A DNA stretch of 64,000 nt from Anaerolineae bacterium (GTDB lineage: Bacteria; Chloroflexota; Anaerolineae; Aggregatilineales; UBA3940), in NCBI GenBank assembly GCA_034435015.1, contig DAOTYH010000062.1, positions 1,219-65,218 of the forward strand, read 5' to 3'. The notes beneath the pieces are model-generated. The model saw only the letters and a list, made by a program, of their open reading frames with translations, did no database searches and was not told the origin of the DNA. Below, piece after piece: positions 2,372 to 41,645 of this stretch. Position numbers and translations under genes: made by a program. Each line of letters starts with the position of its first letter. Positions within the stretch are counted from its first letter, which is position 1.

Positions 2372-3526
2372 TTATTCACCTAGACGCTCAACCATTGCCC
2401 GGAAGTGCCGGCTGCTCTCTACCAGATCGGGGCCATGCCGGTGGAGATTGCCTGCCACTAGAAAGACAGCATCCGGCCCGTAGAAGTCCCGCATCTCTTC
2501 AAAGAACTCCGGACGCACCCCGCCGCCCGGCGAGGGCAAGTTGGGCTTGATGTCCCCCATAGGCACACGTGTTCCTTCTGCCGCCAAGCGGCATTCCTCC
2601 TGAGGCGGCGCAAACCGCCCCTCGTAGTGGGGGAAGATGGAAATATCTGCTCCCATCAGCCGTGAGAGTTGTCCATGTAACACATAGGGTGAGATACCAA
2701 ACTCAGGAGTGCGCCGGTATGTACCCAGAAAACCCGGATGAAACATAATAGGCAGACCAACGGCGTCATCTTCAGCGAGCATGCGTATCATGTCCAGCCC
2801 GCTGAAGGCAGGCATCAGCATAAGGCCATCTGCACCCGCCTCTTTGGCAAAGCGAACCTTCGCCAAGAGTTTCTCCATTGGCCCGCTAATGCATGGAAAA
2901 TACAAGCAGTGGTAACCCGTCTGGTGATTGGCCCTGGCAATGGCTTCCACACAACGGACAACGCGCTCCTCAAACGGGCAGAAAGCCTGATCGGACAACC
3001 CATGGTCATCCTTGATGATGTCAATGCCTCCCAGTGCACACTGATAGGCCATCTCGGCAAGCTGTTGTGGAGACTGCCCCATCGGCTTGAGGGCAGTGCT
3101 GGTCAGAGGACGCGAAGAGACACCTAGAAGTTCACGAATGCCCTTCCGTCCAAAGCGCGGTCCCTTGAACGCCGCCGTTAGACTAGGCGGCAGGTCAAGA
3201 GACTCCAGTCGGACTCCCGGCGTGAAGCTGATGTTACCAAAAACCACGTTTAGGAACTGGGGCAACTCATAGCCTGTGCTCTCAGCGGCATAGGAGATCA
3301 AAACCTCGTAACTGCCGTCTGGGAGCGGCACGAAAGTCTCAATCCAGCCCACCAAGTTGTCACGTAACAGGCCGGGCGCAAGAAGCTCATAAGGGAACTC
3401 GACTGTCTGTTCCACACAGATAAACTCAGCGATTCGGCGTGCATCGGCCTCGTTTAACCCATGCAGGGTATAGCGCACCCGAAGACGTTCACCCGAAAAA
3501 GTAAGTTCAGGGTTATCGTACTGCAT
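2372..3526 (-). CDS. RuBisCO large-subunit-like protein (form IV RLP), not a carboxylase
   Basis: 384 aa. The block ALKPMGQSPQQLAEMAYQCALGGIDIIKDDH aligns by eye with the RbcL block [32 protein letters not shown]. The equivalents of K175 and K201 are kept, while K177 becomes M and E204 becomes H. MFHPGFLG aligns with HIHRAMHA. No small-subunit or PRK gene is nearby. Confidence 0.85.
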   Translation of the reverse strand: MQYDNPELTFSGERLRVRYTLHGLNEADARRIAEFICVEQTVEFPYELLAPGLLRDNLVGWIETFVPLPDGSYEVLISYAAESTGYELPQFLNVVFGNISFTPGVRLESLDLPPSLTAAFKGPRFGRKGIRELLGVSSRPLTSTALKPMGQSPQQLAEMAYQCALGGIDIIKDDHGLSDQAFCPFEERVVRCVEAIARANHQTGYHCLYFPCISGPMEKLLAKVRFAKEAGADGLMLMPAFSGLDMIRMLAEDDAVGLPIMFHPGFLGTYRRTPEFGISPYVLHGQLSRLMGADISIFPHYEGRFAPPQEECRLAAEGTRVPMGDIKPNLPSPGGGVRPEFFEEMRDFYGPDAVFLVAGNLHRHGPDLVESSRHFRAMVERLGE

Positions 3527-3605: not shown

Positions 3606-4844
3606 TCAGATGTCACTCTCTCCAGCAAAGCGGTTGAAGCGTGCGATCAGCCACTCACTGGTCTCACGTACCAGCGGGATACAGACACCATGCAAGTGAC
3701 GCTCTGTGCTGTATTGTTTCGCCTGCTCAGGGTCGCTTAGGTCAAGTTGAAGCAGATCACGGCAATTAGTGGTGCTCTTCTGAGCCTGATACCAGCGGAC
3801 CAGCTCAGCGGCCATAGCGCGCGCCGCATAGCGCGGCGGCTTGTATTGGGGGTTGCTGTGGGCTTCGCGTGCGCCAATAACCATCAGCCCCCCTATAAGG
3901 GAGCCGCAGGTCAGGCCCTGCCTTGCCATGCCGCCGATAAAGGAGGTTGCGGCACGGTGCGCAACCTCAGAGCTGTACCCCTCCGCCTCGGCAAAGGCGG
4001 TGAAGACAGACTCGGCACAGGAGTACCCCTGTCTGAAAAGCTCCTCTGCATAGGCAGGGATGTCAATCGGGGTGAAGGGTGCTTGCCCCTCACTTCCTGT
4101 GATCTTCAGGCAGGCTGATAATGACCCGCACAGGGCGTTGTCACGCTGGTCAAGGAGGGTGTGCGGCTTGAAATCTGGGGCGGATATGTGCTGACGCAAT
4201 GCGCCCGTCAGGGCTTCTGTCAGTATGGGGGTACAATCAAAACCGCGCACACCCAGTGCCAGCGCACGCTTCAGGTCCTCTTCCGGAAGAACAGCCGCCG
4301 TCCTCAGCAACAAGGGGGCAGACAGCCCCTCACACAGGGCGGCCAGACGATCAAACGGGACAGCGTCCCCCCACGACAGTAGCAGTGCATCCGGGCCGGC
4401 GCTTTCGACAAAGGCGCGGGCACGCACTGGATCAACCGCCTCTGCCTGACCCAGAAGGACGGCAACAGCCAAGCCGTTTTCACGGGCAAGCCTGCCAGAT
4501 TCCTGCACAAAGTCTGTCTCATGATTCTCGATCAGGCAGGCACAAAATCCCAGCCGGATCGCCTCACCCACCTGTTCGAGGTTTTGCACCCCTGCCAGCA
4601 TCAGGCAGATTGGCACGCGGGCCATACGCGCCTGTTCACGCAAGGCATCGGACAGACGGCGTACCTCGCCTGTAGAGATGCCTCTGAACCTGTCCGTACG
4701 CACAACCAGCACAAGCGGCGCTTCCTGCTTGCCAGCCTGTGTCATCAACGCTTGCGCGGCCAGCAGATCATCAACACTGGCCAGCACCAACCCGTAGGCC
4801 TTCTCCGTAGCGGCAGTAAGCAAAGCCGGCAGGGAACCTAGCAT
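3606..4844 (-). CDS. fusion protein: class-II aldolase-like (FBA/GatY fold, apparently zinc-less) N-domain + C_GCAxxG_C_C C-domain
   Basis: 412 aa. ATG at 4844 has GGAGG upstream, inside the end of the preceding gene. The N-terminal ~240 aa align by eye with GatY/KbaY (details in the findings). The C-terminal ~150 aa carry the C_GCAxxG_C_C pattern: GYSCAESVF, LTCGSLIGG, TNCRDLL, HGVCIPL. Confidence 0.6.
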   Translation of the reverse strand: MLGSLPALLTAATEKAYGLVLASVDDLLAAQALMTQAGKQEAPLVLVVRTDRFRGISTGEVRRLSDALREQARMARVPICLMLAGVQNLEQVGEAIRLGFCACLIENHETDFVQESGRLARENGLAVAVLLGQAEAVDPVRARAFVESAGPDALLLSWGDAVPFDRLAALCEGLSAPLLLRTAAVLPEEDLKRALALGVRGFDCTPILTEALTGALRQHISAPDFKPHTLLDQRDNALCGSLSACLKITGSEGQAPFTPIDIPAYAEELFRQGYSCAESVFTAFAEAEGYSSEVAHRAATSFIGGMARQGLTCGSLIGGLMVIGAREAHSNPQYKPPRYAARAMAAELVRWYQAQKSTTNCRDLLQLDLSDPEQAKQYSTERHLHGVCIPLVRETSEWLIARFNRFAGESDI

Positions 4845-4847
4845 GGC

Positions 4848-6284
4848 CTAAGCCTCCATCGGCCTGAGGTAAGGCCGGTAAATTTGCTTTCCGATAGGAC
4901 GCATCCCCAGCCAAGCCGCCAATTCCAACCCCGCCCCGCTGAGGTCGCCGTAAGCCAGCGGATAGTGATGCTGGTAACCGCTAGCCATTAAAGTCTCGAT
5001 CAAGTCTGGCACAGTGACAGCTTCGTCGTTCAAGCGCAGGTCACAGAACCAACCCCGGCTCCCTACGTAGCTGGACTTGCTGTTGTCCAGCCTGCCGCCC
5101 AGCACAAGAACGCGGTCAAAGTCTGTGGTGAACCCGAAGACGGTAGCCTGCCCCGGCTTCAGCACAAGATCGTTGTGCAGGCCAATGCCATCTCCGCCAT
5201 AGCCGTCAAAAAGCCAGAGAGACTGCATCCTGACGCCCTTCTCATCCGCCAATGAGGGAGCAGTCGGGCCGCAGTGCCAGAGCAGTATACTTTCGTCCGT
5301 CTCATCCACAGCGGAAAGGTCCATCAGGGTGACGACCGTACCGCCGCTCATGTAGCGCAAAGCCAGCATCCCGGCGGCGCTTGTGACATCCCCTTCGCAG
5401 GCGGCGATCAGGCCGTCTTCATTGAGCTGGCCCAGCACACTGCACACGGCTAGATGATAGTCTGACTGGAAACGCGGCCAGCAACTTATTGCCAACGCAT
5501 CGAGAGAACGCTCCTCAGCCAGTTGCCGATAGGTCAGCAGTACACGTCCCGCTCTATCTAATGCAGGAGCTTGTCCTTCGTCGAAGGTGGCGGCCCCTCC
5601 GCGGATACGTTCAGAAGCCTCCATTGCTGGTTCGCTAGGCTGGGCTTCAGCCCGCCCGATGACCTCATCAAATTCAATGTGAGCCACGCGGATACCCAGA
5701 CGCTCATAGAGCACACGCTCGTCAATAATGAGGTTGTCAAAGCCGGGAGCTACCCCGCCTACCAGCCCAATGCGTGCCCCTTGCAGATTGATGAGTGCCG
5801 TGAGCGCCTTCACCGTGAGTGCCAGCCGCTCATCAAAGAGCGGTTGACCGGGCCGCCCGTAAAACCACTTGACGGGCTTGCGATAGCCGCTCAGGAAGGT
5901 CTTGGCGATGCTGTTGTACATATTAGCGGCAGTGAAGCTGTTAAGCGGCAGGCCGCCTTTGGGCGCAGGCGGCCCTTCGGGCACAGCCCAGATACCCAGC
6001 CGGGCATCCAGCGTGGTGAACTCGTAGATGAACTCACCGGGGCCAAAGGAGCTGGTCTGTAGCAGGATGAAATCCGCCCCCCACTCCTTCAGCTCGGCGG
6101 CGGCGCGGCGTGCGTCTTCGATATTCCACATGCCGCCAGTGATCACATGCAGGTCAAAACCAAGATGTTCAGCGAGTGCGTTGAGCCGCTCGGCGCTGTC
6201 GGCAAACTGCGCCGCCTTGTCACCTAGAAAAGGTGTACACATCACGCCGGTCAGGCCTACCTTGAGCCGTCGAGTTTCGCGCAT
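4848..6284 (-). CDS. L-fucose/L-arabinose isomerase-like sugar isomerase family protein
   Basis: ATG at 6284 has GGAG 7 nt upstream. The ORF-track start at 6311 is TTG. The ~478-aa layout fits the family: an N-terminal Rossmann-like region (LKVGLTGVM...DFILLQTSSFG) and a C-terminal YQHHYPLAYGD block. It resembles COG2407-type FucI-like proteins. Confidence 0.6.
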   Translation of the reverse strand: MRETRRLKVGLTGVMCTPFLGDKAAQFADSAERLNALAEHLGFDLHVITGGMWNIEDARRAAAELKEWGADFILLQTSSFGPGEFIYEFTTLDARLGIWAVPEGPPAPKGGLPLNSFTAANMYNSIAKTFLSGYRKPVKWFYGRPGQPLFDERLALTVKALTALINLQGARIGLVGGVAPGFDNLIIDERVLYERLGIRVAHIEFDEVIGRAEAQPSEPAMEASERIRGGAATFDEGQAPALDRAGRVLLTYRQLAEERSLDALAISCWPRFQSDYHLAVCSVLGQLNEDGLIAACEGDVTSAAGMLALRYMSGGTVVTLMDLSAVDETDESILLWHCGPTAPSLADEKGVRMQSLWLFDGYGGDGIGLHNDLVLKPGQATVFGFTTDFDRVLVLGGRLDNSKSSYVGSRGWFCDLRLNDEAVTVPDLIETLMASGYQHHYPLAYGDLSGAGLELAAWLGMRPIGKQIYRPYLRPMEA

Positions 6285-6323: not shown

Positions 6324-7991
6324 TCAACCCACCGGCCAGCGGAAGTATGGCCCCTGCGCAGGCCAATCCCAGAAAGGCTGGCTGGCAGAGTCCAGCGCGT
6401 ACAGCGAGAGTGAAAAGCCAGCCATCTCCTGTGTGGTGAAGAAGGAGCCTACCACACTGCCGGCGACCTCCAGCCCATGTGCCCGCAAGGCATGATGGAC
6501 ACGCCTGTTGAGGATATGCAATTCCATCAGCGAAGTGCCGCCTGCACCATTCAGGAAGCTGAGTACACGTTTTTCCAACAGCGGGTTGAGGTCTTCCAGC
6601 AGTCGCTGAATAAGCATGTCAATCAGGGCGTCGGCATGCAGATGCGCCCCGCGATAGACCCCTGCCTCTCCATGCACGCCTGCCCCTACCTCAATCTGGC
6701 CGGGCGGCATCTCAAACATGGGTTGTCCAGAGACAGGATGGGTAGGCGGTCGTGCCGCCACCATCAGGGTAGCAGTACGTTCATTAGCGGCCCGCATCAG
6801 GGCGGCAACATCAGCCAGCGGAAGCCCCTGCTCAGCGGCGGCGCCTCCGATCTTGAGGCTGAAGAGTAATCCGCCCAACCCGCGCCGCTCCTCCAGACGG
6901 GAGCGGGGCGCGGTAGCAATATCGTCCCCTAGTAATACACCTTCGACTACAATACCTTCCTGGCTAGCCCTTCGAAGGGCCAGCCGGGCGTTAAGCACGT
7001 CCCCAGTATGGTTGGAGATCAACAGCACAACGCCCGCGCCGCGATCCGCTCGACGGATCGCCTCCGCAATGCGAACACCAGGGGCACAGGTGAAGATCGG
7101 GCCGTAAACATCGGCATCAAGCAGGCCCGGCCCAACAAACCCTCCCATCGAGGGGGTGTGACCGCCGCCGTGTCCGATGGCCAGCGCAGCCTTTCCGGCG
7201 GCCTTGGGCTGTGCCCTCACCAGGATGTCAGGAGGGACATAATGGAGCAGGGCCGGATAAGTAAGAGCCATGCCCTCTAATTCTTCAGCGATCAGGTTGG
7301 CAGGCTGGTTGATGAACTTACCGGGCGGCGGAAGTTGTTCTGCCTGTCCGGAAGGGAGGGAAGGGATCGCTGTGCCGACCGCTAGATCATGCAAGGTTTC
7401 AACAAGGATGGCCAGCGAAGTCGCACCTGCATCCTGATAGCCCGCTGAGCGCTCGCCAAGGAAGCGGGCGCGGCCATGCATGGCCGCCATCCCGCGTGTC
7501 AACTCAGCGCCTTGACGCGCCGCGATAGCCGCTACTGCCAGCGCACTGGCTGGCGGCTCCAGAGAGTGCTCTGCCAGAGCCTGCGCCGCCGGCGCCAAGG
7601 CGTCAACAAGCGTCTTCTGGCCGGGCTGGGCACCACCTATCTGTTGGACAGCCTCCAAGCCGCCCGCAAAAAAGGCGGCCAGATCAGCGCTGTTGAGTTG
7701 TTGTTTGCCGCGCAGTAGCACGCCGCCTTCTGCAAAGAAGGCCGCCAGCAGGGGGCCAATAGCCCCGCCTGCCGCAACAGCCAGCGCTTCTGAGGCTGTA
7801 TCAAGGAGGGCGCCTATATCAGCACAACCCGCCTGCACGGCCAGCTCGGCGGCCGCAAAGGCACGGCTGACTGTGTAGCCGTGATCGCCGTCCCCCACTT
7901 CCGCGTCAAGCGCATTGAGGGCGTCACGTTCTTGCTCGAAGCGTGCACGCAATAGCGAGAAGAAGCCCCTCAGTGCATCCAGATCAAGCAC
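6324..7991 (-). CDS. dihydroxyacetone-kinase-family ketose kinase, fused with permuted domain order (DhaL N-terminal, DhaK C-terminal)
   Basis: 555 aa. The N-terminal ~200 aa carry the DhaL signature LDAEVGDGDHGYT. The C-terminal ~330 aa carry DhaK blocks: ALAIGHGGGHTPSMGGFVGPGLLDADVYGPIFTCAP, LLISNHTGDVLNARLA, ERRGLGGLLFSLKIGGAAAE and GAGVHGEAG. The GTG start overlaps the upstream stop by 8 nt (GTGCTTGA). Confidence 0.8.
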   Translation of the reverse strand: MLDLDALRGFFSLLRARFEQERDALNALDAEVGDGDHGYTVSRAFAAAELAVQAGCADIGALLDTASEALAVAAGGAIGPLLAAFFAEGGVLLRGKQQLNSADLAAFFAGGLEAVQQIGGAQPGQKTLVDALAPAAQALAEHSLEPPASALAVAAIAARQGAELTRGMAAMHGRARFLGERSAGYQDAGATSLAILVETLHDLAVGTAIPSLPSGQAEQLPPPGKFINQPANLIAEELEGMALTYPALLHYVPPDILVRAQPKAAGKAALAIGHGGGHTPSMGGFVGPGLLDADVYGPIFTCAPGVRIAEAIRRADRGAGVVLLISNHTGDVLNARLALRRASQEGIVVEGVLLGDDIATAPRSRLEERRGLGGLLFSLKIGGAAAEQGLPLADVAALMRAANERTATLMVAARPPTHPVSGQPMFEMPPGQIEVGAGVHGEAGVYRGAHLHADALIDMLIQRLLEDLNPLLEKRVLSFLNGAGGTSLMELHILNRRVHHALRAHGLEVAGSVVGSFFTTQEMAGFSLSLYALDSASQPFWDWPAQGPYFRWPVG

Positions 7992-8844
7992 CGGCTACCT
8001 CCCGCCGGACAAAATCCGCACCGGCACGCGCCCCTGCATCCAGATCATCCCCAAGAGGACGCCAAATCGAGAGGGCCGGGCCGACCTCTTCGCCCGGCTG
8101 TACAAATGACTCAATGGTCAGCCAGCCACGGTAGCCCGCCGCATCGAGCGCCTCACGCACACTGGCCCATGGAATATGTCCCTGCCCCGGCATCTTGCGG
8201 TTGTTCTCCGAGCAATGGAAGTGGCCAATCTGATCACCCGCCAGCCGGATCGCTTTGCTGATGTCATCTTCTTCAATGTTCAAATGGAAAGTGTCGAGGT
8301 GTAATTTAATGGCGGGACTGTTCACTTCGGCCAACAGGGCTAGACCCTGTTCAACCGTGTTGATCAAATACCCTTCGAAGCGGTTGAGCACCTCAAGGCA
8401 AAGCGTCACGCCCAGACTGGCGGCGATCTGTCCAACCTCACGCAATGCCTTGATGCAACGTTTGCGGGCCTCAGCCTGCTCTGCGTAGGGCGGAAAGACA
8501 CCCCAAGCGGCGTACGTCACCCCGCCCAGCACGGGACTGCCGAGAGCCGCACATCCTTCCAGACAGGCCCGCAAATGGGCTGTACCTGCTGTGCGTATGC
8601 CGCTGTCGGGGCTGGTAATGTCGGTCGCGGGGCCAAGGCCAGTGCCGCAGGTGGCGTGCATTCCCTGTTCGTCCAATGCGGCCCGCAGACGCGGAAAATC
8701 CATTGTTGCCGGCGACAGCAAAGGAAACTCTGCCCCGTCAAAGCCGGCCTGCCGTGCCCGTGCGATCAACGGCACTAGATCGTCTGACCATTGCCGTTGC
8801 CAATAAGAAAGATGTATCCCAATTGGGCGGGGCATCGTCAGCAC
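7984..8844 (-). CDS. ketose 3-epimerase-like sugar-phosphate isomerase/epimerase (xylose-isomerase-like TIM barrel)
   Basis: 286 aa. It is collinear by eye with D-tagatose/D-psicose 3-epimerases: IGIHLSYW, LCLEVLNRFE, HLDTFHLNIEE, GHFHCSENNRKMPGQGHIPW, TIESF. These blocks hold the E/D/H/E metal-ligand positions. The start is GTG at 8844 or ATG at 8835. Confidence 0.75.
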   Translation of the reverse strand: MLTMPRPIGIHLSYWQRQWSDDLVPLIARARQAGFDGAEFPLLSPATMDFPRLRAALDEQGMHATCGTGLGPATDITSPDSGIRTAGTAHLRACLEGCAALGSPVLGGVTYAAWGVFPPYAEQAEARKRCIKALREVGQIAASLGVTLCLEVLNRFEGYLINTVEQGLALLAEVNSPAIKLHLDTFHLNIEEDDISKAIRLAGDQIGHFHCSENNRKMPGQGHIPWASVREALDAAGYRGWLTIESFVQPGEEVGPALSIWRPLGDDLDAGARAGADFVRREVAGA

Positions 8845-8907: not shown

Positions 8908-10194
8908 CTAGAAGCCGAGCAGTTTGGCAATCCCTCCTACCACAATGGCGATCAACGAGAAGTCGTTGCCGCCAAAGAGCTGGATGAAATTGCCCGCCGA
9001 GTTGGAGATGAGGGGGAGTGAGAACGCCTGCAGTACGATCAACAACACACCGCCAACAGCCGCCGCAATGATCGCTCCACGCCGCCCCCCTGTGGCGTTC
9101 GCTACCACTGCCGCCGGGCCAACATCAAAGAAGGCCGCAACAACCAGCGGGAACAGCACATAGCTGTAGCCTGCCAAGTTGAAGATCACGAGCGTGATCA
9201 GCGAGGTGATCATTGCGATTGGGAAGCCGATAGCCAGCGCGTTCTGGCCGTAAGGGAAGACCATCGGGCAGTCCAGAGCAGGCACAGCCTCTGGCACGAT
9301 AGCCTTGGCAATGCCATGGAAGGCCGGGATGATCTCAGCCAGCATCATGCGGACACCGGTCAGCAAGACGACCAGTGCGGCACCAAAGCTGATACCCTTG
9401 AAGAGCGTCCAGAACACCCAGATCCACACCTGCCCGCCGGTATAGGTGTCAGCCGCCCACTGCGGGCCGGCCAGCAGACCGAAGATCAAGTAGAGCAGGA
9501 ACATGATCAGCGAGGTTGTGATCACCATTTCCTTGAGGAAACCAAGCCCCTTGGGAACCTCAATATCCTCAGTAGACTTGTTGGGGTTGCCAAGCAGTTT
9601 GCCCAGCAGAGCACCGATCAACACATGGATGGTGGTGGTGTGGCCAATGCTGAACTGCCTGTCGCCCGTCAGCTTGAAGATGAAGGGGGCGATTATGGCC
9701 GGCAGGACGGTAGAGATGATGCCGAGGACGATACTGCCGACAATAACCAAAGGTACACCGGTGATGCGGCCGCCGTCCGCCAGCGCCGCCGCCACCATGA
9801 ACGCATTCCAGAACAGGATATGCCCTGTTAGGAAGACGTACTTGAGCGGCGTTACGCGGGCGAGGATCACATTCACCAAGAAGCCAAAGACCATGATCAG
9901 CACGACTTCAATGCCCCGCTCAGCTAGGAAGGCAGTGAAGTCGGCCACAGCGGCTGTTCCCCCGCCACTGCCTTGATAGACCTGTGCAAAATGCTCTGAG
10001 ATCGGCGTGATAGCCGCAACCAGCAGGTCTACTGCGGCAAAAAGGATGAGCACACCTGCCATCGTCTTGATCGTGCCGCTGATGACCTCATTGACCGGCT
10101 TGCGCTGGAACAGCAAGCCTAGCAGGGCTACAATGCCCAGCATAAAGGTCGGCAGGATGCGCGGGACAAGGGTGAAGATAATATTGATGTCCAT
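8908..10194 (-). CDS. PTS ascorbate-family EIIC permease (SgaT/UlaA-like)
   Basis: 428 aa and polytopic. ATG at 10194 follows AAAGGAGGA. The N-terminus (ILPTFMLGIVALLGLLFQRKP...ISGTIKTMAGVLILFAA) and overall hydropathy fit the UlaA/SgaT family. The cognate EIIB and EIIA are in the same operon. Confidence 0.75.
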   Translation of the reverse strand: MDINIIFTLVPRILPTFMLGIVALLGLLFQRKPVNEVISGTIKTMAGVLILFAAVDLLVAAITPISEHFAQVYQGSGGGTAAVADFTAFLAERGIEVVLIMVFGFLVNVILARVTPLKYVFLTGHILFWNAFMVAAALADGGRITGVPLVIVGSIVLGIISTVLPAIIAPFIFKLTGDRQFSIGHTTTIHVLIGALLGKLLGNPNKSTEDIEVPKGLGFLKEMVITTSLIMFLLYLIFGLLAGPQWAADTYTGGQVWIWVFWTLFKGISFGAALVVLLTGVRMMLAEIIPAFHGIAKAIVPEAVPALDCPMVFPYGQNALAIGFPIAMITSLITLVIFNLAGYSYVLFPLVVAAFFDVGPAAVVANATGGRRGAIIAAAVGGVLLIVLQAFSLPLISNSAGNFIQLFGGNDFSLIAIVVGGIAKLLGF

Positions 10195-10236
10195 AGCATT
10201 CCTCCTTTAGGGTTAGTACAGCAACTACGATGAGAA

Positions 10237-12411
10237 CTACTCACCCGCCTGCCAGAAAATGTCAACGACGAGGCTTGCCTCACTGCGGGGGGCACAGCGG
10301 ACAAGCAGGTTATCCCCCTCCAGAGACCAGTCTGCAGGCCCGCTCTGGCTGGGGAACATCTCTACCCGTTCTGGCATGCGGCCATTCCGTTGGATACACA
10401 GCACACAGCTTGTATCCTCTCTCAAATAGTTTGCAATCAGCAGAGTACTGCGGCCCGACCCTTCCAATAAATGGTGGTCGAGGGTACGCTCTCCCTGTTG
10501 CTGATAGCTGATGCAAACACGGGGCCGGATCGCAAGGCGCTCCAGCACAACGGCCAGCAGGCTTTTGAGCCAGGCCCCCTCCGGTTTCAGATAACCGGCG
10601 TCGGCTCTGGTGGCAATATACAGGCCTGCGCCTTTGCCGCGCTGAGCCAATGTGATAGCAGGCCACCCATCCGTAAAGCGGGCCAGCACCTCCGTATTTG
10701 GCTCAGGCTGGATTAGATCACGATGGAATGCGCCCTGCACTGCCTGCCCCTCCAGATCAAGGATCGGCGTGCCAAGTGCGTCAGGTTCGATCTGGGCCAG
10801 CCCGAAAGCTTCACGCAAGCCGGGGATCGGCAGATGATGATGATACCAGCCTGCTTCGGTCAGGGCGGCACAACGCGCAAAGGCAATCAGCAGACCCCCG
10901 CTCTCTACATAAGCCAGCAGTGCCGCCGCCTCCTCAAGGTTGAGGAGAGAAACCAGCGGCAGTACGATAACCCGGTAGAACTTGATCTCTGGAAGTTTCA
11001 GGTGGGGTGGAGTAATGAAGTCCACGCTGAAGCCCTGCTCCCAAAGGGCGCGGTAAGCACCACGCTGGGCGGCAAACAATATCTCTTCCTGACCGATACT
11101 GCTGAAGAAGATCGCATTAGGCTTCGATTCAAGCAGAGCAACCTCGCCTTGCGGCACATGTGCCGTGAGCAGATGCTCTTTGTTATGCTGGATATAGCGG
11201 CCCAACCCAGTTGCCGCTTCGAGGCGCGGCGTAGGTTGCCCGTCTAGATCAACCAGTGCGCCCCAGTGCAACGGCTGATAATCCCACTCACGCCATGGCA
11301 TGTAGAGCAGCATCTTGGCATCATGTCCCAGCGCCTCAAAGCCGTTGCGCCAGATGTCTGTTGGGCTGGTGTTGTATTCCGGCCCCAGTACCCAGCCGCC
11401 AATGGGGCCTGACTCAACTTCATGCAACCAGAAATCGCGTCCACCCCAACGGCTGACACTCCGCCCATGATCGAGGAAGATCGAGGTGTGTTCAGGGCGG
11501 GACACTATCTTGGCTCCACTGCCGGGGTAGAGATCATAGCCAATGTGATCTACCTGCTTAGCGATCTGCCACTGATCTAGGCCGGTAAGAGCGCCAAAAC
11601 GGTCATATCCTTTGAAGTTAAAGGTGTTGATCGAGGTTGGATGATCAGGATCATACTGGCGGATCAGATCATGCTGGCGGCGTGCAAACTCTGCAAAAGC
11701 CTCCTGCCAGAAGAGCCGCCAGTCCAGCCAGCGCGTCACGCCTGACCACGTGTCCGGTGTTGCTTCAGGAGGATCAACCTCCTCCCAATCATTATACCAG
11801 AAGGCTGTTGTACTCCACATCCAAGCGGCATTAAGCGCCTCAAGCGTGTGATATTTGGCCTGTACCCACTCACGAAAGCGTGCCTTGCTGTGATCGCAGT
11901 AACAGTAGATGTCAAGGCGGCCCTTCTCCCGCGTGGGGTTAAAGGGAAAGCCGATCTCGTTGCTGATCTGCCAGCCAAAGTGATTCTCATGTCTAACAGC
12001 AAATTGAGCCAGAGCCGCCAGATAGCGGTCACTAGCCTCTAGGAAGCCCGGATGATGGATGCAGGCCCAATGATAGGAGGCTGCCAGCGGATAACGCTCC
12101 CCCCGGCTGGACAGGATCACCGCATCAGGATACTTACGCGCCAGCCAGAGCGGCGGGCAGGAGGCGCCGGTGCTCAGCAACACATCCAGACCGAAGGCCC
12201 CGGCACGGCGGTAAAAGGAGTCGAGGACCTCCAAGCGAATGCGGCCCTCCTGCGGTTCGAGGCGATCCCACGAACCATGTACATCCCCAATGCGGATCAG
12301 GTTCATGCCTGCCGCCTGCATCTGCCGCAGGTCTTCCTCCCACTCCGACTCCGGGAAGATCAAAGGGGAGTAAGATGCACCGTAGCGCATCACCGCCCGT
12401 GAGCCTGACAT
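10237..12411 (-). CDS. glycoside hydrolase family 42 (beta-galactosidase-like)
   Basis: 724 aa. The GH42-type N-terminus reads YGASYSPLIF..WEEDLRQMQAAGMNLIRIG..SWDRLEPQEG. The acid/base motif is GWQISNEIG and the candidate nucleophile region is FWLHEVESGPIGGW. Trimerisation-domain-sized and C-terminal beta-domain-sized regions follow. Confidence 0.8.
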   Translation of the reverse strand: MSGSRAVMRYGASYSPLIFPESEWEEDLRQMQAAGMNLIRIGDVHGSWDRLEPQEGRIRLEVLDSFYRRAGAFGLDVLLSTGASCPPLWLARKYPDAVILSSRGERYPLAASYHWACIHHPGFLEASDRYLAALAQFAVRHENHFGWQISNEIGFPFNPTREKGRLDIYCYCDHSKARFREWVQAKYHTLEALNAAWMWSTTAFWYNDWEEVDPPEATPDTWSGVTRWLDWRLFWQEAFAEFARRQHDLIRQYDPDHPTSINTFNFKGYDRFGALTGLDQWQIAKQVDHIGYDLYPGSGAKIVSRPEHTSIFLDHGRSVSRWGGRDFWLHEVESGPIGGWVLGPEYNTSPTDIWRNGFEALGHDAKMLLYMPWREWDYQPLHWGALVDLDGQPTPRLEAATGLGRYIQHNKEHLLTAHVPQGEVALLESKPNAIFFSSIGQEEILFAAQRGAYRALWEQGFSVDFITPPHLKLPEIKFYRVIVLPLVSLLNLEEAAALLAYVESGGLLIAFARCAALTEAGWYHHHLPIPGLREAFGLAQIEPDALGTPILDLEGQAVQGAFHRDLIQPEPNTEVLARFTDGWPAITLAQRGKGAGLYIATRADAGYLKPEGAWLKSLLAVVLERLAIRPRVCISYQQQGERTLDHHLLEGSGRSTLLIANYLREDTSCVLCIQRNGRMPERVEMFPSQSGPADWSLEGDNLLVRCAPRSEASLVVDIFWQAGE

Positions 12412-12416
12412 AGAGA

Positions 12417-12704
12417 CTACTTCTTGCCTTCTAGCAGAGGACGAATGGCCGGCAGGACCTTCTCCACCACCTCGGTTTTACTGAGGAAGTTGTTGACGAC
12501 CACCACCGGCTGAGGGATGTCCTTAAACGCTGTAGAGAGGTCTTTTGAGGTGACTACAACATCGAAGCGCTCACCTTTAGCGGTAGTCATATCTGTGCAG
12601 AAGGTCTCAGCCTTAAGTCCGCTCTCCTTGAGGACTTCATCTATTTTGAGCTTCAAGATCATGCTTGACCCAAGGCCAAAGCCACATACAACCATGATGC
12701 GCAT
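12417..12704 (-). CDS. PTS EIIB component (ascorbate/lactose-type, SgaB-like)
   Basis: ATG at 12704 is preceded by AGGAGG with a 6-nt spacer. The ORF-track start at 12731 is TTG. MRIMVVCGFGLGSSMILK contains the phospho-Cys loop typical of PTS_IIB. Confidence 0.8.
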   Translation of the reverse strand: MRIMVVCGFGLGSSMILKLKIDEVLKESGLKAETFCTDMTTAKGERFDVVVTSKDLSTAFKDIPQPVVVVNNFLSKTEVVEKVLPAIRPLLEGKK

Positions 12705-12820
12705 CTGTATCCTCCTGATGGGATAGGCCAATAGCGCGGGAGGGGTCGAGAAGAAAGCCCTTTATTTTAAGGTGTACTGCCCCAACACAGCCAGGGGCTT
12801 GATGCTAGGGACAGGATGCC

Positions 12821-13279
12821 TCAGGAGTTAGCAATGTCAAACTGCTGGATGATGTCTACAACTTCTTTAACACTCTTAGCGGCACTCAGTTTCTGACGGG
12901 TAGTTTCTTCTCCAAGAAAGCCCGCCAGTTGAGTCAACATGCTAATATGGCTGGTCTTGTCTGGGTTACCGAAGGCAATCACCAGCGAGACAGGATCATT
13001 CTCTTGAGAGCCAAACTCGACTGGCTTCGCCAGCGTAACCAGTGATACACCCACGGCCAGCACACCATCCTCTGGACGCGCATGAGGCAATGCAAGACCA
13101 GGTGCCAGTACCATATAAGGCCCGACGCGGTAAACAGCATCTATCATAGCCTGAACATACCGAGGCTCACACTTGCCAGCCTTGACAAGCGGCTCTCCCG
13201 CCGCACGGATAGCCTCTTCCCAGTTCTTGGCGGGAACTTTTAGCCGGATCATATCCGGTGTCAGGGTTTCACTGAGCAT
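12821..13279 (-). CDS. PTS EIIA component (EIIA-2, mannitol/fructose/ascorbate type)
   Basis: 152 aa. PGLALPHARPEDGV matches the phospho-His loop of PTS_EIIA_2, and the size is typical of SgaA/UlaC. Confidence 0.8.
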   Translation of the reverse strand: MLSETLTPDMIRLKVPAKNWEEAIRAAGEPLVKAGKCEPRYVQAMIDAVYRVGPYMVLAPGLALPHARPEDGVLAVGVSLVTLAKPVEFGSQENDPVSLVIAFGNPDKTSHISMLTQLAGFLGEETTRQKLSAAKSVKEVVDIIQQFDIANS

Positions 13280-13288
13280 TTTCTTTCT

Positions 13289-14254
13289 TTAGTCCTCTTT
13301 CAGAAGTTTCAGTGCTGTCAGGGAGTCCGTGATCAGAGTATTGAGAAGCCTGCCGCGCATAGCGGCACGCAGTACTTCTACCTTTTCGGGGCCGCCTGCT
13401 ACCACCACACTGCGAGGCACATGCCGCAGGTCTTCAAGGCTGATGGCAATGGCCCGCTCGCAGATCGGATGCTGGATATACTCTCCCTGACTGTCAAAGA
13501 ATTGGCCTAGCATATCCCCCACTGCGCCACGCGCCCGCAGGTCCTCTAGATCATCATCATTCAAATAGCCGTGCAGGTAAAGCAGGGCCGACCGATCAAC
13601 CGGGCCAACGCTCTGCAGGACCATATCAGCCCGACGGGCTAGCTCCAGCGCCGCCGCGATGGGCGGCTCCCGCAGGAGAGCTTCGCGCATCTCCGGGCTG
13701 GAAACAATGGTCGGCGCATACAGGTAAGCCGCTTTGCTCTCGGTCAGCTCGGCTATACGCGAAGTAATGTTGTAATCGGTGAAGCCGCCAGTACTCCCTA
13801 CGCCTCCGGCAACCTCAACAAACTGACACCCGATTGTCTGCGGAGGGCCGAATACCTGTGGAATATAGGAAAGAGTGCGCCCCTGCCCAATCCCGACGAT
13901 CATATCTGGCCGCAGGTTGCTGGTCAGCCATAGAACGGCGCCCTGAGCCAGTGTGCGGTAAAGCGGCTCTCCCGGCTCAGCCTCAGTAACGACCAGCGCC
14001 TCCCTCAAACCGTATCTACGGCATAGCTCCTGCTCCAAGCCAAAGTGGATCGGCTCCGGCGTGTTAATCCTGATCTCTACAATACCCAACTCGCGGGCCT
14101 GTTGAAGCAGACGATTCACCTTAACGCGGGAGAGTTCAAGCAGGTCACCGATCTCCTGCTGAGTCAGGCCGTCAATGTAATACATCCAGGCCGCCTGAGC
14201 CAGCAGGCGGGTCAGCGCTGAATTGGGGGTGGTACGTGCCTGACTACGGATCAT
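13289..14254 (-). CDS. SorC/CggR/DeoR-type sugar-binding transcriptional regulator
   Basis: 321 aa. The N-terminal HTH reads LTQQEIGDLLELSRVKVNRLLQQARELGIVEI. A sugar-phosphate-binding domain follows (IVGIGQGRTL..., VVVAGGPEKVEVLRAAM). It is the first gene of the operon. Confidence 0.8.
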   Translation of the reverse strand: MIRSQARTTPNSALTRLLAQAAWMYYIDGLTQQEIGDLLELSRVKVNRLLQQARELGIVEIRINTPEPIHFGLEQELCRRYGLREALVVTEAEPGEPLYRTLAQGAVLWLTSNLRPDMIVGIGQGRTLSYIPQVFGPPQTIGCQFVEVAGGVGSTGGFTDYNITSRIAELTESKAAYLYAPTIVSSPEMREALLREPPIAAALELARRADMVLQSVGPVDRSALLYLHGYLNDDDLEDLRARGAVGDMLGQFFDSQGEYIQHPICERAIAISLEDLRHVPRSVVVAGGPEKVEVLRAAMRGRLLNTLITDSLTALKLLKED

Positions 14255-14458: not shown

Positions 14459-16267
14459 ATGGCAACACCCTATGACGGCAAGGTAGGTCTTTGGCATGTA
14501 GCGGGTAGCTGGGTAGGAGAGCCGGATATTGCAACACTGGCCAGCTCAGTTAAGCAACAATGTCCGGTCGCTGATGCGATCTATGTAAAAACCAGCAACG
14601 GCAAAGACTGGCAGGGCGTTTTTGATACAAAGGCCTCCATGGAGATCAACGGGCCGTCTGATATAGCCAAGTGGGTCAGTACGCTTGCCAGCTACGGCCT
14701 AGAGACGCACGTGTGGTGTGTGCTCAAGGGGCAAGACATTCAGGCTGAGATAGCCCGTGTGGTTGAGGCCGCCAGTGTGCCGGGTGTCAGGTCCATGATC
14801 CTCGATGTGGAGCCTTATACCGGCTACTGGCAGGGTACCCGCGCACAGGTCACGCAACTGATGAGCGGGGTGCGTAGTGCGCTGGGCCAGAGTTTCCATA
14901 TCGGCATCAGTGTGGACCCCCGCCGGCAACACTATGCCTCCATCTACCCTGACGCGTGGCGCCCCTACGTGAACAGCGTTCATCCTCAGGTGTACTGGGA
15001 GGAGATGCGGCGCGAGCCTGAAGACATCTTGAATGAGACCTACGTGGTGTGGGGGGGGTACGGGTTACCGATCTACCCGGTCTTACAGGGTTATGCCAGT
15101 GACCCTAACAGCATCCGCCGGGCACAAGACCTCGCCCGCAGTGTGCGCGGTGCAACCGGATTGTCCTACTTCCGGCTGGGGGTGATCGGGCCGATGCAGT
15201 TTCAGGCCATCAACGAGGAGTTCGTGGATGAGGAGGTCGGGCCAGACAAGGTCCTGCGGCGTTATGGCTGGGAAAAGATCATCTCCCCTGATGACGCCGG
15301 CTACCGGGATGGGACACGTTCCGGGCAGGCGACCAGCACCGTCTTTACGCAATTTACCAGCGTGCGCGGCCACATCATTAAGTACAAGAAGACTGAGGTT
15401 GCCCGTGACACCGTCTGGGCACAGTGGACCCCTCAACTGCCAGCCAAGGGGATTTATGAGATCTCGGTTTATGTGCCGGGACGGCATGCTACAACGCGCA
15501 ATGCTAAATACCATATTCATGGTGTGGCGGGCGTGGGAACTGAACTGCTGGTCAGCCTAAATCAGTATATTTACTCTGACCAGTGGGTCCCGCTGGTAGT
15601 CTATGAATTCGACAATACGAAGCCCAACGGCGGTCAGGTCAACCTGACTGATCTGACCGGTGAAAACAACCTGGAAATTGCCTTCACAGCGATCCGCTGG
15701 CGGCAGGTGATCGAGCAGATACAGCCAGAGGAAGAGGCAGGGTTCGACCCGCCCGTTGGAACAGCCCAAGAACGGCTGAGCAGTAAGGTCTGGCCGGGCA
15801 AATGGTATGATGCCACTGGTTATGCCACTTACTACACTACCGTTGGACCTGCCTATCACACAGGTGCTGATCTCAACCTGCCCGGCGACGCCGACCGTAA
15901 TACGCCGGTGTACGCGCCCGCTGATGGAGTTGTCACCTTCTCTGGCCGTAGCAGTGGCACGTGGGGGCGTCTGATTGTGATCCGCCACGATCCGTTGCCG
16001 GATGGCACAGTGGTCTGGAGCCGTCTGGCGCACATCACCAACCCGCTGGTCAAAGAGGGGGATCGTGTCGAGCGCGGCCAGCAGATAGCCAGCATTGGGA
16101 ATGCCGAAGGGCAGTTGCCGTTCCATCTGCACTTTGACATCGCCAAGACAGACATACTGGAACGAAACCCCGGACACTGGCCCGGCAGTAACCTTGATCT
16201 AGTGCGCAGACACTACGTTGATCCGCGCCTGTTCATCGAACAGCACCGTCCGCCTGGTCGTGTCTAG
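14459..16267 (+). CDS. multidomain cell-wall hydrolase: N-terminal TIM-barrel glycoside-hydrolase-like domain + golvesin/CBD-like middle domain + C-terminal M23 peptidase
   Basis: ATG at 14459 follows GAAGGAG. The C-terminus has M23 motifs HTGADLN (HxxxD) and FHLHFDI (HxH). The middle region (GIYEISVYVPGRHATTRNAKYHIHG...NQ...DQWVPLVVYEF) resembles golvesin-C-type binding domains. The N-terminal ~270 aa (VKTSNGKDWQG, MILDVEPY) resemble GH25/DUF1906-like barrels. Confidence 0.75.
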   Translation: MATPYDGKVGLWHVAGSWVGEPDIATLASSVKQQCPVADAIYVKTSNGKDWQGVFDTKASMEINGPSDIAKWVSTLASYGLETHVWCVLKGQDIQAEIARVVEAASVPGVRSMILDVEPYTGYWQGTRAQVTQLMSGVRSALGQSFHIGISVDPRRQHYASIYPDAWRPYVNSVHPQVYWEEMRREPEDILNETYVVWGGYGLPIYPVLQGYASDPNSIRRAQDLARSVRGATGLSYFRLGVIGPMQFQAINEEFVDEEVGPDKVLRRYGWEKIISPDDAGYRDGTRSGQATSTVFTQFTSVRGHIIKYKKTEVARDTVWAQWTPQLPAKGIYEISVYVPGRHATTRNAKYHIHGVAGVGTELLVSLNQYIYSDQWVPLVVYEFDNTKPNGGQVNLTDLTGENNLEIAFTAIRWRQVIEQIQPEEEAGFDPPVGTAQERLSSKVWPGKWYDATGYATYYTTVGPAYHTGADLNLPGDADRNTPVYAPADGVVTFSGRSSGTWGRLIVIRHDPLPDGTVVWSRLAHITNPLVKEGDRVERGQQIASIGNAEGQLPFHLHFDIAKTDILERNPGHWPGSNLDLVRRHYVDPRLFIEQHRPPGRV

Positions 16268-16285
16268 ACCAAGATGAAAGCGCAA

Positions 16286-16324
16286 GGGTGGACAGCCTCT
16301 ATCACAAAGACTGCCCACCCTTTT
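16286..16324. terminator. hairpin terminator between convergent genes
   Basis: GGGTGGACAG (16286-16295) pairs with CTGCCCACCC (16311-16320) with one mismatch, followed by TTTT at 16321-16324. It lies between the M23 gene (+) and rtcB (-). Confidence 0.5.
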
Positions 16325-16361
16325 CACTACCCGCATATAGCCGGCGGCTCGTGCCGCACAA

Positions 16362-17810
16362 CTAACCTTTGATCACTGCCAGCGGGATCAGCCGCGCTAC
16401 CTTGCGGGCAATACCTGCCCCGCTCACAACCTTGACCACCTCATCCACATCCTTATAGGCCTGAGGGGCCTCCTCAGCTAGGCCGGGCATGCTTCCTGCC
16501 CGTATAGTGATACCTTCCTTCTCTAACTCAGTGCGCAACGCCTCGCCGCGTATGGTGCGTTTGGCCTCGTTGCGGCTCATGACGCGCCCGGCACCGTGGC
16601 AGGTGCTTCCGAAAGTCTGCCTCATGCTCTCTTCTGTTCCCACCAGTACCCAACTGGCTGTACCCATTGAGCCGGGCACCAGAACAGGCTGACCGATGAT
16701 ACGGTACTCAGGCGGGAGTCCCTCAAAGCCGGGTCCAAAAGCACGTGTCGCGCCCTTGCGATGAACAACAACCTCGATGGTCTTTCCGTCAACCTGGTGT
16801 TTCTCAACTTTGGCCATGTTGTGGGCAATGTCATAGACCTGCCATAGACTCCAGTCGCGCACCTTGCCAGCCAGAACCGCTTCGAAACTGCGGCGGATAT
16901 GGAAGGCCAGCACCTGACGATTGGCAAAAGCATAGTTGGCGGCGGCACACATGGCGGCGTAGTAAGCCTGCCCCTCCGGTGAATGAAACGGAGCGCAAAT
17001 CAGCTCGCGGTCAGGGAGTTTAATGCCGTATTTCTGGCTCGCCGTTTGAAAGTCGCGTACATAGTCAGTACAAACCTGATGACCAAATCCCCGTGAGCCG
17101 CAGTGAATCTGGACGGCTATTCGACCCTTGTACAACCCCATTGCATTAGCGGCCTGCTCATCGTAGACCTCGTCAATCAAGTCCACTTCAATGAAGTGGT
17201 TTCCTGCGCCAAGTGTCCCTACCTGTTCGATTCCGCGCTCCCATGCCCGCTTGCTGACCTTGCCGCTGTCAGCGGCTTTCAGACAGCCGCCTTCTTCTGT
17301 CCGGGCAAGGTCCTCCGGCGTGGCATATCCCTTCTGAAGTGCCCATTTGGCCCCTTCATGCAACAGCTTCTCGAAGTCTTTATCTTTCAATTTGAGACTG
17401 CCCTCTTTACCGACACCGCTGGGGCAGTTCTGATATAACGTTGAAGCCAGCACAGACAGATGCGGACGTATCTCTTCTAGATCGATGTTGCTGGCAAGCA
17501 CGCGGACTCCACAGTTGATGTCAAACCCAACCCCGCCGGGCGAGATGATTCCACTGTCAGCCCGCGATGCTACCACGCCGCCAATCGGAAATCCATACCC
17601 TTGATGGATGTCAGGCATGGCCAGCGCATACTGTACCAGACCGGGAAGTGTGGCTGTGTTGACCAACTGATCAACCGATTGATCACCCAGAGCATCCTCT
17701 AATAACCGCTCGCTGGCATACAGCCGTGCTGGAACACGCATGTCATCCCGGAATGTGGCGGGAATCTCCCACAGATACTCGGACAGGCGATTGATGTCTT
17801 GCTTGCGCAT
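16362..17810 (-). CDS. rtcB: RNA-splicing ligase RtcB (3'-phosphate/5'-hydroxy RNA ligase)
   Basis: 482 aa with the hallmark blocks [36 protein letters not shown] and CHGAGR. Confidence 0.9.
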
Positions 17811-17835
17811 AGGCTTCTCTCCTCTACCTCACTAC

Positions 17836-18261
17836 CTACACATCAAAGACAATGACCGTCTCATAGCCCTTATCAGTCTGTCGGATGACAAGGTTATGAT
17901 AGGTGACCGCTTTGATGTACTTGTCGAAACGGCCATTTGTCCTGCCAGTCACCTCAGCATCTAACCTGAAATCAGCGGCACGCTGTACAGCAATGTGGGT
18001 AAACACAACCCGCTGATCTTCAATGAGGTACAATAATTCCGTCAGCCAGTCCACCAGCAGGATTTCCCAGTCCGGGGCATGTAAAGAGATGGTTCTGTGA
18101 ATGACAGCCCCTGCTGGGGAAGCCTCTCCCCCGATCAAGCTGACCATGCCCCGTGCGGCATTCTCAAACAGCGCACGCAGGTCCTCCCCCCGTACCCGCA
18201 GTGCCCAGTCCGCAGTATGCTCAATTTCCTCCCATGCAGGGAGAGAGGGTGTATCAGCCAT
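17836..18261 (-). CDS. archease (RtcB activator)
   Basis: ATG at 18261 is preceded by GGAGAA. WEEIEHTADWALRVRG, IKAVTYHNL and the ~141-aa size are typical of archease. It lies 25 nt upstream of rtcB on the same strand. Confidence 0.85.
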   Translation of the reverse strand: MADTPSLPAWEEIEHTADWALRVRGEDLRALFENAARGMVSLIGGEASPAGAVIHRTISLHAPDWEILLVDWLTELLYLIEDQRVVFTHIAVQRAADFRLDAEVTGRTNGRFDKYIKAVTYHNLVIRQTDKGYETVIVFDV

Positions 18262-18337
18262 AGCAATTCTCCAGTATCGGGAGATTTGGGAAATGATCAC
18301 CTATCTCTATTGAGTATACACAGAGTATACACAAGGT

Positions 18338-33209: not shown

Positions 33210-33455
33210 AGTTTCCTCATGGCATGTTTGACAGGTTAACCTGATATCGCAATGTGTGGAGACCACCGGCAGCATGAACTAGCAGACTCTATTTTACCCT
33301 ACTATATGCCAAAAATATGGACACAAATGTCAAAGAAACCAGCTCTGAGAAGATTACTCATCTGCCGGCTTGCCTGTGAGATGTCCTGCTCAATTATGAT
33401 ATACTAAAGCCTGTTGACAACGTGTACCCAGTGTGTGGAGCAGTGCATCTAAAAA

Positions 33456-35864: not shown

Positions 35865-36929
<1,065 letters not shown>

Positions 36930-36996
36930 CCTACCCTCTCTGCGGCAGGGGTGGCAGATTGGCCACCCCTGCTAACGGCTATCTTTGGGGGAAAAG

Positions 36997-38184: not shown

Positions 38185-38296
38185 GCTTTCTCGTATCGTC
38201 TTGAATGTCTTAAGCAGGCCAGCCTGATAGCTGGCCTGCTTGTTACCCCATGTTACAATACATTGTACCCCCGTCTTTTGGTAAGGAGAGTGGCTA

Positions 38297-41586: not shown

Positions 41587-41645
41587 GTTGGGCAGATTGT
41601 AACGGCAACTGTGGCCGCGGGCTAGTGCCAGTTGAGGGAAGTGTG

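Follow-up and report, generated by a model that had tools for sequence, protein, structure and literature searches.

The stretch of 64,000 nucleotides from an Anaerolineae bacterium analysed here (contig DAOTYH010000062.1, positions 1,219 to 65,218; hereafter the window) carries, at positions 3606-4844 of the minus strand, an unbroken open reading frame (ORF) with an ATG start and a TGA stop, which encodes a 412-aa protein in which a degenerate barrel of the class II aldolase type is joined to a C_GCAxxG_C_C domain (window coordinates below refer to the minus strand unless marked otherwise). The Pfam scan matched residues 7-254 to PF01116 (F_bP_aldolase; 45.4 bits, cutoff 25.5) and residues 274-399 to PF09719 (C_GCAxxG_C_C; 86.6 bits, cutoff 27), and the NCBIfam model TIGR01909 scored above its cutoff as well (52.1 versus 47.4 bits), in agreement with a preliminary description of the gene, made from the sequence alone, which had proposed this fusion. 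All NCBIfam aldolase models stayed below their cutoffs of 215-545 bits, scoring 27-55 bits. The concern that a frameshift or a stop codon might separate the two halves did not materialise: contigs of four independent assemblies (two from ENA, one each from JGI and Logan) all carry the 412-aa protein unchanged, which rules out a frameshift or misassembly joining two genes, and the continuous two-domain architecture recurs in homologues at 40-72% identity. A GGAGG sequence is located 8 nt 5' of the ATG, within the 3' end of the preceding isomerase-like gene (4848-4860), and the intergenic gap measures 3 nt, an arrangement that fits translational coupling of the isomerase and the fusion. Inspection of the protein sequence revealed no Met between residues 82 and 306; because no internal Met precedes the first family-defining Cys, the C-terminal domain can be translated only through the barrel.

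The aldolase-like barrel (residues 1-255; 4080-4844) appears to be catalytically dead. Its register was taken from 3 alignments, namely phmmer against solved aldolases, the Pfam match and a MAFFT alignment of 55 sequences including GatY of Escherichia coli, and the 3 methods gave one register for the barrel motifs. The preliminary description had paired IHLDHH with LMLAGV, VEAELG with VAVLLG and VLHGASG with LLRTAAV by eye, and each of these pairings was recovered in all 3 alignments. MLAG (residues 82-85; 4590-4601) replaces HLDH (GatY 80-83), with Ala84 at the position of Asp82 and Gly85 at that of the zinc ligand His83, and AVLLG (residues 128-132; 4449-4463) replaces EAELG (GatY 132-136), with Ala128 and Leu130 in place of Glu132 and Glu134. 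LRTAAV (residues 180-185; 4290-4307) replaces LHGASG, the zinc ligand His208 being substituted by Arg181 and the phosphate-binding Ser211-Gly212 by Ala-Val, and RGFDCT (residues 200-205; 4230-4247) replaces KINVAT, with Asp203, which is invariant in the clade of such degenerate proteins described below (the dead clade), in place of Asn230. The fourth pairing, of GTAHG with SWGDA, required correction: SWGDA (residues 157-161; 4362-4376) aligns with AIGTA of GatY, so that the proposed register was off by 2 residues, and the His is indeed absent but deleted rather than substituted, the His180-Gly181 that follows this motif in GatY (a zinc ligand and the phosphate loop) being missing. None of the 3 zinc-binding His of GatY/AgaY (His83, His180 and His208) is therefore present in the window protein, confirming the loss of the Asp-His pair and of the other zinc-binding His, and the catalytic Asp82, both Glu of EAELG and the residues binding phosphate or dihydroxyacetone phosphate (Gly181, Ser211-Gly212 and Asn230) are equally absent. 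No other register would rebuild the zinc site, as the 3 alignments agree and the N-terminal domain (N-domain) contains just 3 His (108, 219 and 228), none of which is conserved in the clade. Because the Asp, the 3 zinc-binding His, both Glu and the phosphate-binding loops are gone, class II cleavage of ketose phosphates by the barrel is predicted to be no longer possible.

The AlphaFold2 (AF2) model of the window protein, with a predicted local distance difference test score (pLDDT) of 93.4 and a predicted TM-score (pTM) of 0.89, shows all eight strands of the barrel and, after it, a domain made of helices only. Foldseek searches with the model retrieved class II aldolases (E ~1e-16, target TM-scores 0.71-0.88). 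The N-terminal part thus belongs to PF01116 by sequence and has the (beta/alpha)8 fold in the prediction, which bears out the collinearity with class II aldolases originally noticed by eye.

The C-terminal domain (C-domain; residues 262-403; 3636-4061) follows a short linker (residues 256-261; 4062-4079) and is predicted to be all-helical (AF2 pLDDT 91.6). It contains 4 family-defining cysteines in the order typical of the family, C ... (G/T)CGxxxG ... C ... C: Cys276 (GYSCAES; 4017-4019), invariant in alignments A1, A3 and A4; Cys313 (TCGSLIGG; 3906-3908), invariant in A1 and A3 and at least 90% conserved in A4; Cys361 (TNCRD; 3762-3764); and Cys388 (GVCIP; 3681-3683). All 4 are invariant across the dead fusions and the fusions with an intact aldolase, whereas in stand-alone members of the family Cys313 reaches at least 90% conservation, the other 3 being invariant. 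The C_GCAxxG_C_C family is widespread in anaerobes and includes selenoproteins; we know of no function assigned to it. The sole structural match of the domain in Foldseek searches was the split-Soret cytochrome c of Desulfovibrio desulfuricans (1H21), with weak values (probability 0.96, E 0.26, TM 0.54), and a profile built from 24 C_GCAxxG_C_C sequences matched the same protein (E=0.012) over ~60 residues, with the first 2 Cys motifs aligned. The title of the 1H21 entry in PDB names a non-haem iron centre; the window protein contains no CxxCH haem motif. We infer that the four-cysteine (Cys4) domain may bind an iron-sulfur or other metal centre.

Searches with the window protein against 5.8 billion proteins returned only 7 clusters, all of which share its substitutions at the ligand positions. 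When one genome per species was scanned, the cultured Ornatilinea apprima proved to encode a full-length relative (WP_075062042.1; 29% identity), which retains HLDH, ESELGH, GTIHG and LHGSSG, and a search with this protein yielded ~40 clusters having both domains. Every intact-fusion member examined keeps the catalytic motifs HLDH, E-x-E-L-G-H, G-T-x-H-G, L-H-G-x-S-G and K-I-N-V; these proteins score ~225-245 bits against the aldolase models, compared with 27-55 bits for the window protein, and their named sources are all Anaerolineae (Ornatilinea, Bellilinea and Levilinea). In an exhaustive hidden Markov model scan of 1.84 billion representative proteins, the fusions formed 3 dead-type and 2 intact-type clusters at 50% identity, and 241 million metagenome records contributed one further full dead-clade locus and one fragment. 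The C-domain alone, used as a homology query, returned one fragment and nothing more. The author of the preliminary description was not aware of any account of the fusion. With regard to publications this holds, as a literature search on the C_GCAxxG_C_C domain name, which occurs in just 6 papers, found no paper describing the architecture, and a search for class II aldolase pseudoenzymes turned up nothing relevant. The architecture itself, however, is already present in databases in ~40 machine-annotated intact-aldolase clusters, under the names 'ketose-bisphosphate aldolase' or 'ketose-bisphosphate aldolase/C_GCAxxG_C_C family probable redox protein', and what is unusual here is the rare dead-barrel subclade.

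Gene order is common to the window and to the intact-fusion loci of Ornatilinea, Bellilinea and 3 metagenomic lineages, and the dead and live fusions are thus positional counterparts. Between the window and its counterpart L007, the neighbouring genes are 85-97% identical and the C-domains 92%, whereas the N-domains share 62% identity. The corresponding values are 81-83%, 70% and 30% for L009 (in which the RuBisCO-like protein (RLP) encoded next to the fusion is 66% identical), 62-88%, 65% and 28% for L005, and 56-69%, 40% and 25% for the Ornatilinea locus (L011). When the window is compared with L007, the N-domain has a ratio of nonsynonymous to synonymous substitution rates (dN/dS, Nei-Gojobori) of 0.25 and the C-domain one of 0.02, with 6 neighbouring genes at 0.025-0.096; these values are approximate because dS lies at ~0.5-2 and is close to saturation (~1-2). 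The barrel evolves several-fold faster than the surrounding genes, yet non-neutrally, and the C-terminal Cys4 domain is under very strong purifying selection. Among intact fusions, the N-domain is the better-conserved half in 743 of 780 pairs; the relationship is reversed in all 21 dead-clade pairs, and when pairs are matched for C-domain divergence, their N-domains are 75% identical in intact and 28% identical in dead fusions. The dead barrels have also shrunk by 25-40 residues, to 243-261 aa from the 284-287 aa of intact ones. Nearly all residues invariant in the dead clade are Ala, Gly, Pro or Leu that are invariant in active aldolases too, the exceptions being Gly85 (His in 40 of 40 intact fusions), Asp203 (Asn in 40 of 40) and Arg63. 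Such a residue pattern reads as the signature of a fold retained under relaxed constraint, with the active site absent.

In a neighbour-joining tree of the C-domain, the dead clade is placed among the intact fusions, next to P0025, P0028, P0034 and P0043, all of which retain the aldolase motifs. Monophyly of the dead clade received bootstrap support of 100% with the N-domain, a value perhaps inflated by long branches, and of 19% with the short C-domain; the subclade from the window to P0005 was supported at 99-100%. A single loss of the barrel's active site is the most parsimonious reading of these sequences, as the whole clade has Gly85, Asp203 and the His-Gly deletion in common, although 2 losses are possible.

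The fusion is embedded in an operon which starts with a gene for a SorC-type sugar-binding regulator (13289-14254) and continues with phosphotransferase system (PTS) components EIIA (12821-13279) and EIIB (12417-12704), a GH42 glycosidase (10237-12411; Pfam), EIIC of the ascorbate/galactitol type (8908-10194; Pfam, NCBIfam), a ketose 3-epimerase-like protein (AP_endonuc_2; 7984-8844; Pfam, NCBIfam), a Dak2-Dak1 fused kinase (6324-7991; Pfam) and an isomerase-like protein of 478 aa (4848-6284; ~478 aa across the operons), which in operons of the window type is always encoded directly upstream of the fusion. The isomerase-like protein has a distant NCBIfam match to SftI (sulfoquinovose isomerase; 175 bits, cutoff 700), no Pfam family and no sequence relative in PDB. 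In the kinase, a member of the dihydroxyacetone kinase family, Dak2 (DhaL) precedes Dak1 (DhaK), and the protein scores 461 bits against an NCBIfam subfamily cutoff of 492. Taken together, the genes are reminiscent of isomerase-kinase-aldolase routes by which galactose, arabinose or fucose-type sugars, once released by GH42, are broken down, a scheme that does not account for the PTS components. The GH42 gene lies between those for EIIB and EIIC in every operon copy examined (8908-13279 in the window), and a cytoplasmic GH42 together with a phosphorylating PTS of the ascorbate/galactitol type is an odd pairing. PTS Enzyme I is encoded at 31479-33275, separated from the PTS operon by ~17 kb; triose phosphates from the sugar operon would feed into a gap-pgk-tpi glycolytic cluster (35913-39070, plus strand).

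The closest stand-alone relative of the C-domain, P0129 (151 aa; 46% identity), is encoded in a related locus (L038 2198-5853) immediately ahead of a SorC regulator (46% identity with that of the window), after which come a Dak2-Dak1 kinase (60%) and an isomerase (53%), and this locus contains no aldolase barrel. As P0129 adjoins homologous genes, the Cys4 module travels with the kinase and isomerase set whether the barrel is live, dead or absent. The Cys4 domain is the constant element of the gene set, and selection in this sugar-utilisation operon appears to hold the Cys domain, not the aldolase. A separate clade of intact fusions (P0037-P0047) pairs with a SAF/GD_AH (altronate/galactarate-type) dehydratase, which replaces the PTS/GH42/Dak operon (L032 10001-12871; L037 9001-11861); in this group, the unit of aldolase and Cys4 domain is independent of the isomerase.

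The RLP gene (2372-3526) begins 79 nt downstream of the fusion, with no terminator-like site in the gap, and its stop codon is overlapped by 8 nt by a URO-D/MtaA-like gene (1273-2379). The best PDB match of the RLP is 3QFW (245 bits); the protein has a KDDH motif, and its motif GGIDIIKDDHGL has His at the position of RuBisCO Glu204. The RLP occupies the slot that an HAD phosphatase has in intact-aldolase operons: a NagD-type HAD phosphatase follows the fusion in 4 of 5 same-operon intact loci, whereas an RLP is found downstream in 3 of 4 dead-barrel lineages (the window, L007 and L009) and in none of 7 intact contexts. The URO-D/MtaA-like gene overlapping the RLP stop is present in 2 of the 3 RLP lineages (the window and L007). 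RLPs act on ketose-1-phosphates. One such compound, 5-methylthioribulose-1-phosphate, can go either to an RLP or to an aldolase in Rhodopseudomonas palustris (PMC5893883), the aldolase in that case belonging to a different family. By analogy, what the isomerase and the Dak kinase produce in the window lineage may be passed on to the RLP. A literature search for an operon of RLP, Dak and isomerase in Chloroflexi turned up nothing relevant. No second class II aldolase was found in the window in tblastn searches, for which GatY, FbaB and intact fusions served as queries, or in Pfam scans of 39 window proteins (~12 ORFs at 33.4-34.1, 44.5-44.9 and 55.9-63.6 kb lay outside the scan), and no active one was found in the dead-clade operons. 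In the P0007 lineage, the gene following the fusion (L005 11380-12303; also in L033) encodes a 307-aa protein without a Pfam match, with an HCHTTESDG motif and a PHP-phosphoesterase-like look, and L005 further encodes a 1320-aa protein (15994-19956) in which FGGY kinase, 2-hydroxyacid dehydrogenase, SCP2 and Aldolase_II domains occur together.

Elsewhere, the window encodes an RtcB RNA ligase and the archease that partners it (16362-18300), a protein that joins a Ser/Thr protein kinase to PD40/beta-propeller repeats (26141-28324, plus strand) and a separate WD40 propeller protein of 388 aa (41625-42791, plus strand). ORFs of 255, 261 and 446 aa (39126-39893, plus strand; 40885-41670; 46353-47693) had no Pfam match at E <= 1e-5.

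We consider it probable that the fusion is a scaffold pseudo-aldolase carrying an essential, likely metal-binding Cys4 domain and that the cleavage step of its operon now takes another route. The pseudo-aldolase would have descended, in place, from an active fusion of ketose-bisphosphate aldolase and C_GCAxxG_C_C domain in an Anaerolineae sugar operon. The selected function would be located in the Cys4 domain, which would most probably hold an iron-sulfur or other metal centre through its 4 invariant Cys and serve a redox or metal-handling role in the sugar pathway. The dead barrel would be kept as a folded carrier of this domain, for docking or oligomerisation, and also since the C-domain lacks a start codon of its own. 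The C-C cleavage step would have passed to, or been bypassed by, other enzymes; in the window lineage, the RLP and the URO-D-like protein would stand in for the HAD phosphatase of intact loci, the isomerase and then the Dak kinase being expected to yield a ketose-1-phosphate, the substrate class of RLPs. A bolder version, in which the series from live to dead to no barrel represents a true pathway switch, with the RLP and the URO-D/MtaA-like enzyme of the window lineage replacing aldol cleavage in consuming the ketose-1-phosphate from the isomerase and Dak kinase, and the Cys4 domain acting as an iron-sulfur module required by the pathway regardless of the enzyme that comes next, is a speculative proposal that we hold to be unlikely; if true, it would imply that RLPs have a further, new function in Chloroflexota and would assign the C_GCAxxG_C_C family its first biochemical role.

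Several observations weigh against the scaffold reading. The dN/dS of 0.25, approximate as it is, would suit a ligand-binding or weakly catalytic barrel as well as a scaffold; the polar residues Asp203 and Arg63 are invariant in the clade; and the alignment given to AF2 held intact homologues, from which the confident barrel may stem. The C-domain tree is compatible with one barrel loss or with two. Binding of a metal or cluster by the Cys4 domain is a prediction, and the link to 1H21, the centre of which is reportedly a Cys-ligated [2Fe-2S] cluster, is weak (E 0.26 with Foldseek, 0.012 with the profile), with 2 of the 4 Cys inside the aligned stretch. Finally, the dead lineage of P0006/P0007 has neither RLP nor Dak, encoding instead a PHP-like gene, GT4 and an FGGY kinase, and the association with the RLP probably represents one evolutionary event.

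The preliminary description had suggested a non-catalytic or repurposed barrel. Non-catalytic it would be, as an aldolase; repurposing for a new catalytic or ligand-binding role, such as sugar-phosphate sensing coupled to the Cys4 domain, is less likely because the clade invariants are nearly all structural Ala, Gly, Pro and Leu inherited from active aldolases. A dN/dS below 1, the completeness of the confidently predicted barrel, the location of Asp203 (for Asn230) and Arg63 at or near the catalytic face, and the presence of the barrel in 7 of 7 clusters at identities as low as 28% are all consistent with such a role. However, just 4 of the 255 positions hold an invariant polar residue, with no invariant His, Glu, Cys or Lys among them, lineage-specific deletions affect the active-site loops (for example, a 17-aa gap in P0004), the Ser-Gly and His-Gly phosphate-binding loops are lost, and identity within the clade falls to 28% while the C-domain still retains 64%, so that we regard repurposing as unlikely. 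About as doubtful is the opposite extreme, a functionless remnant that stays open only because the C-domain must be translated through it. The barrel is the fastest-evolving segment of the whole operon, has lost 25-40 residues and gained many indels, and, with no Met at 82-306, leaves no internal start that could yield the whole C-domain; moreover, the stand-alone protein of 151 aa shows that the domain exists without a barrel in a related operon. Yet the dN/dS is far below neutrality, the invariance of A12, A37, A42, P43, G99, A120, G124, L154, L180 and G198 points to selection for the fold, and in none of the 7 clusters has the barrel been truncated to a short leader.

The protein might also act as a regulatory dead subunit, assembling into hetero-oligomers with a catalytically active class II aldolase from another locus and modulating it, in the way that GatZ/KbaZ assist GatY/KbaY. 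Class II aldolases are oligomeric, GatZ of E. coli is annotated as an aldolase chaperone, and the core fold and C-terminal helix are preserved in the AF2 model, but no active class II aldolase was found in the window search or in the dead-clade operons, there is no similarity to GatZ, and the very fast divergence of the barrel speaks against a conserved interface; we judge this explanation very unlikely. Membership in the GatZ/KbaZ family (PF08013) was rejected, as Pfam gave no match and tblastn of E. coli GatZ against the window was empty. That the gene is an artefact, that is, 2 genes fused by sequencing or assembly error, or a pseudogene, can be practically dismissed in view of the identical ORF in independent assemblies, the same continuous architecture in 7 dead and ~40 intact clusters, the strong purifying selection on the C-domain and the ribosome-binding site ahead of the start codon.

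The window gene offers a clean natural case of an enzyme domain decaying in place beside a strongly selected fusion partner, which helps to tell scaffold pseudoenzymes from repurposed ones. The locus gives the C_GCAxxG_C_C family a concrete setting, a sugar operon with Dak kinase and isomerase, in 3 forms, namely with a live aldolase, with a dead one and free-standing, the live form being available in the cultured Ornatilinea apprima and Bellilinea caldifistulae. The presence of the RLP exactly where the aldolase died points to ketose-1-phosphates as a testable substrate class for this uncharacterised RLP. Furthermore, automatic names miss half of each protein, intact fusions being called plain 'ketose-bisphosphate aldolase' and those of the window type 'probable redox protein'.

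Compared with known systems, the likeness to GatZ/KbaZ is one of concept only, that of a non-catalytic aldolase-related protein in a sugar operon: they belong to a different family, and GatZ has the active GatY encoded beside it, whereas no such partner of the fusion was found in the 64 kb. With class II aldolases (GatY, KbaY/AgaY (1GVF), fructose-bisphosphate aldolase (FBA; 1RV8/2FJK), YdjI (6OFU) and SqiA (8Q57)), the window protein shares a homologous (beta/alpha)8 barrel but differs in that the zinc ligands, catalytic Asp and phosphate loops are gone and a C-terminal Cys4 domain has been added. Its C-domain resembles the stand-alone PF09719/TIGR01909 proteins (~150 aa) in the 4 Cys and in passing both family cutoffs; unlike some of them, it has Cys instead of selenocysteine, and it is located behind a dead barrel. 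The split-Soret cytochrome c 1H21 aligns weakly with the domain at Cys motifs 1 and 2, while its haem motifs are not found in the window protein. The closest counterparts are the intact Anaerolineae fusions of Ornatilinea apprima and Bellilinea caldifistulae, which have the same 2 domains, the same 4 Cys and mostly the same operon slot after the isomerase but, by contrast with the window protein, have kept the catalytic motifs and score highly as aldolases.

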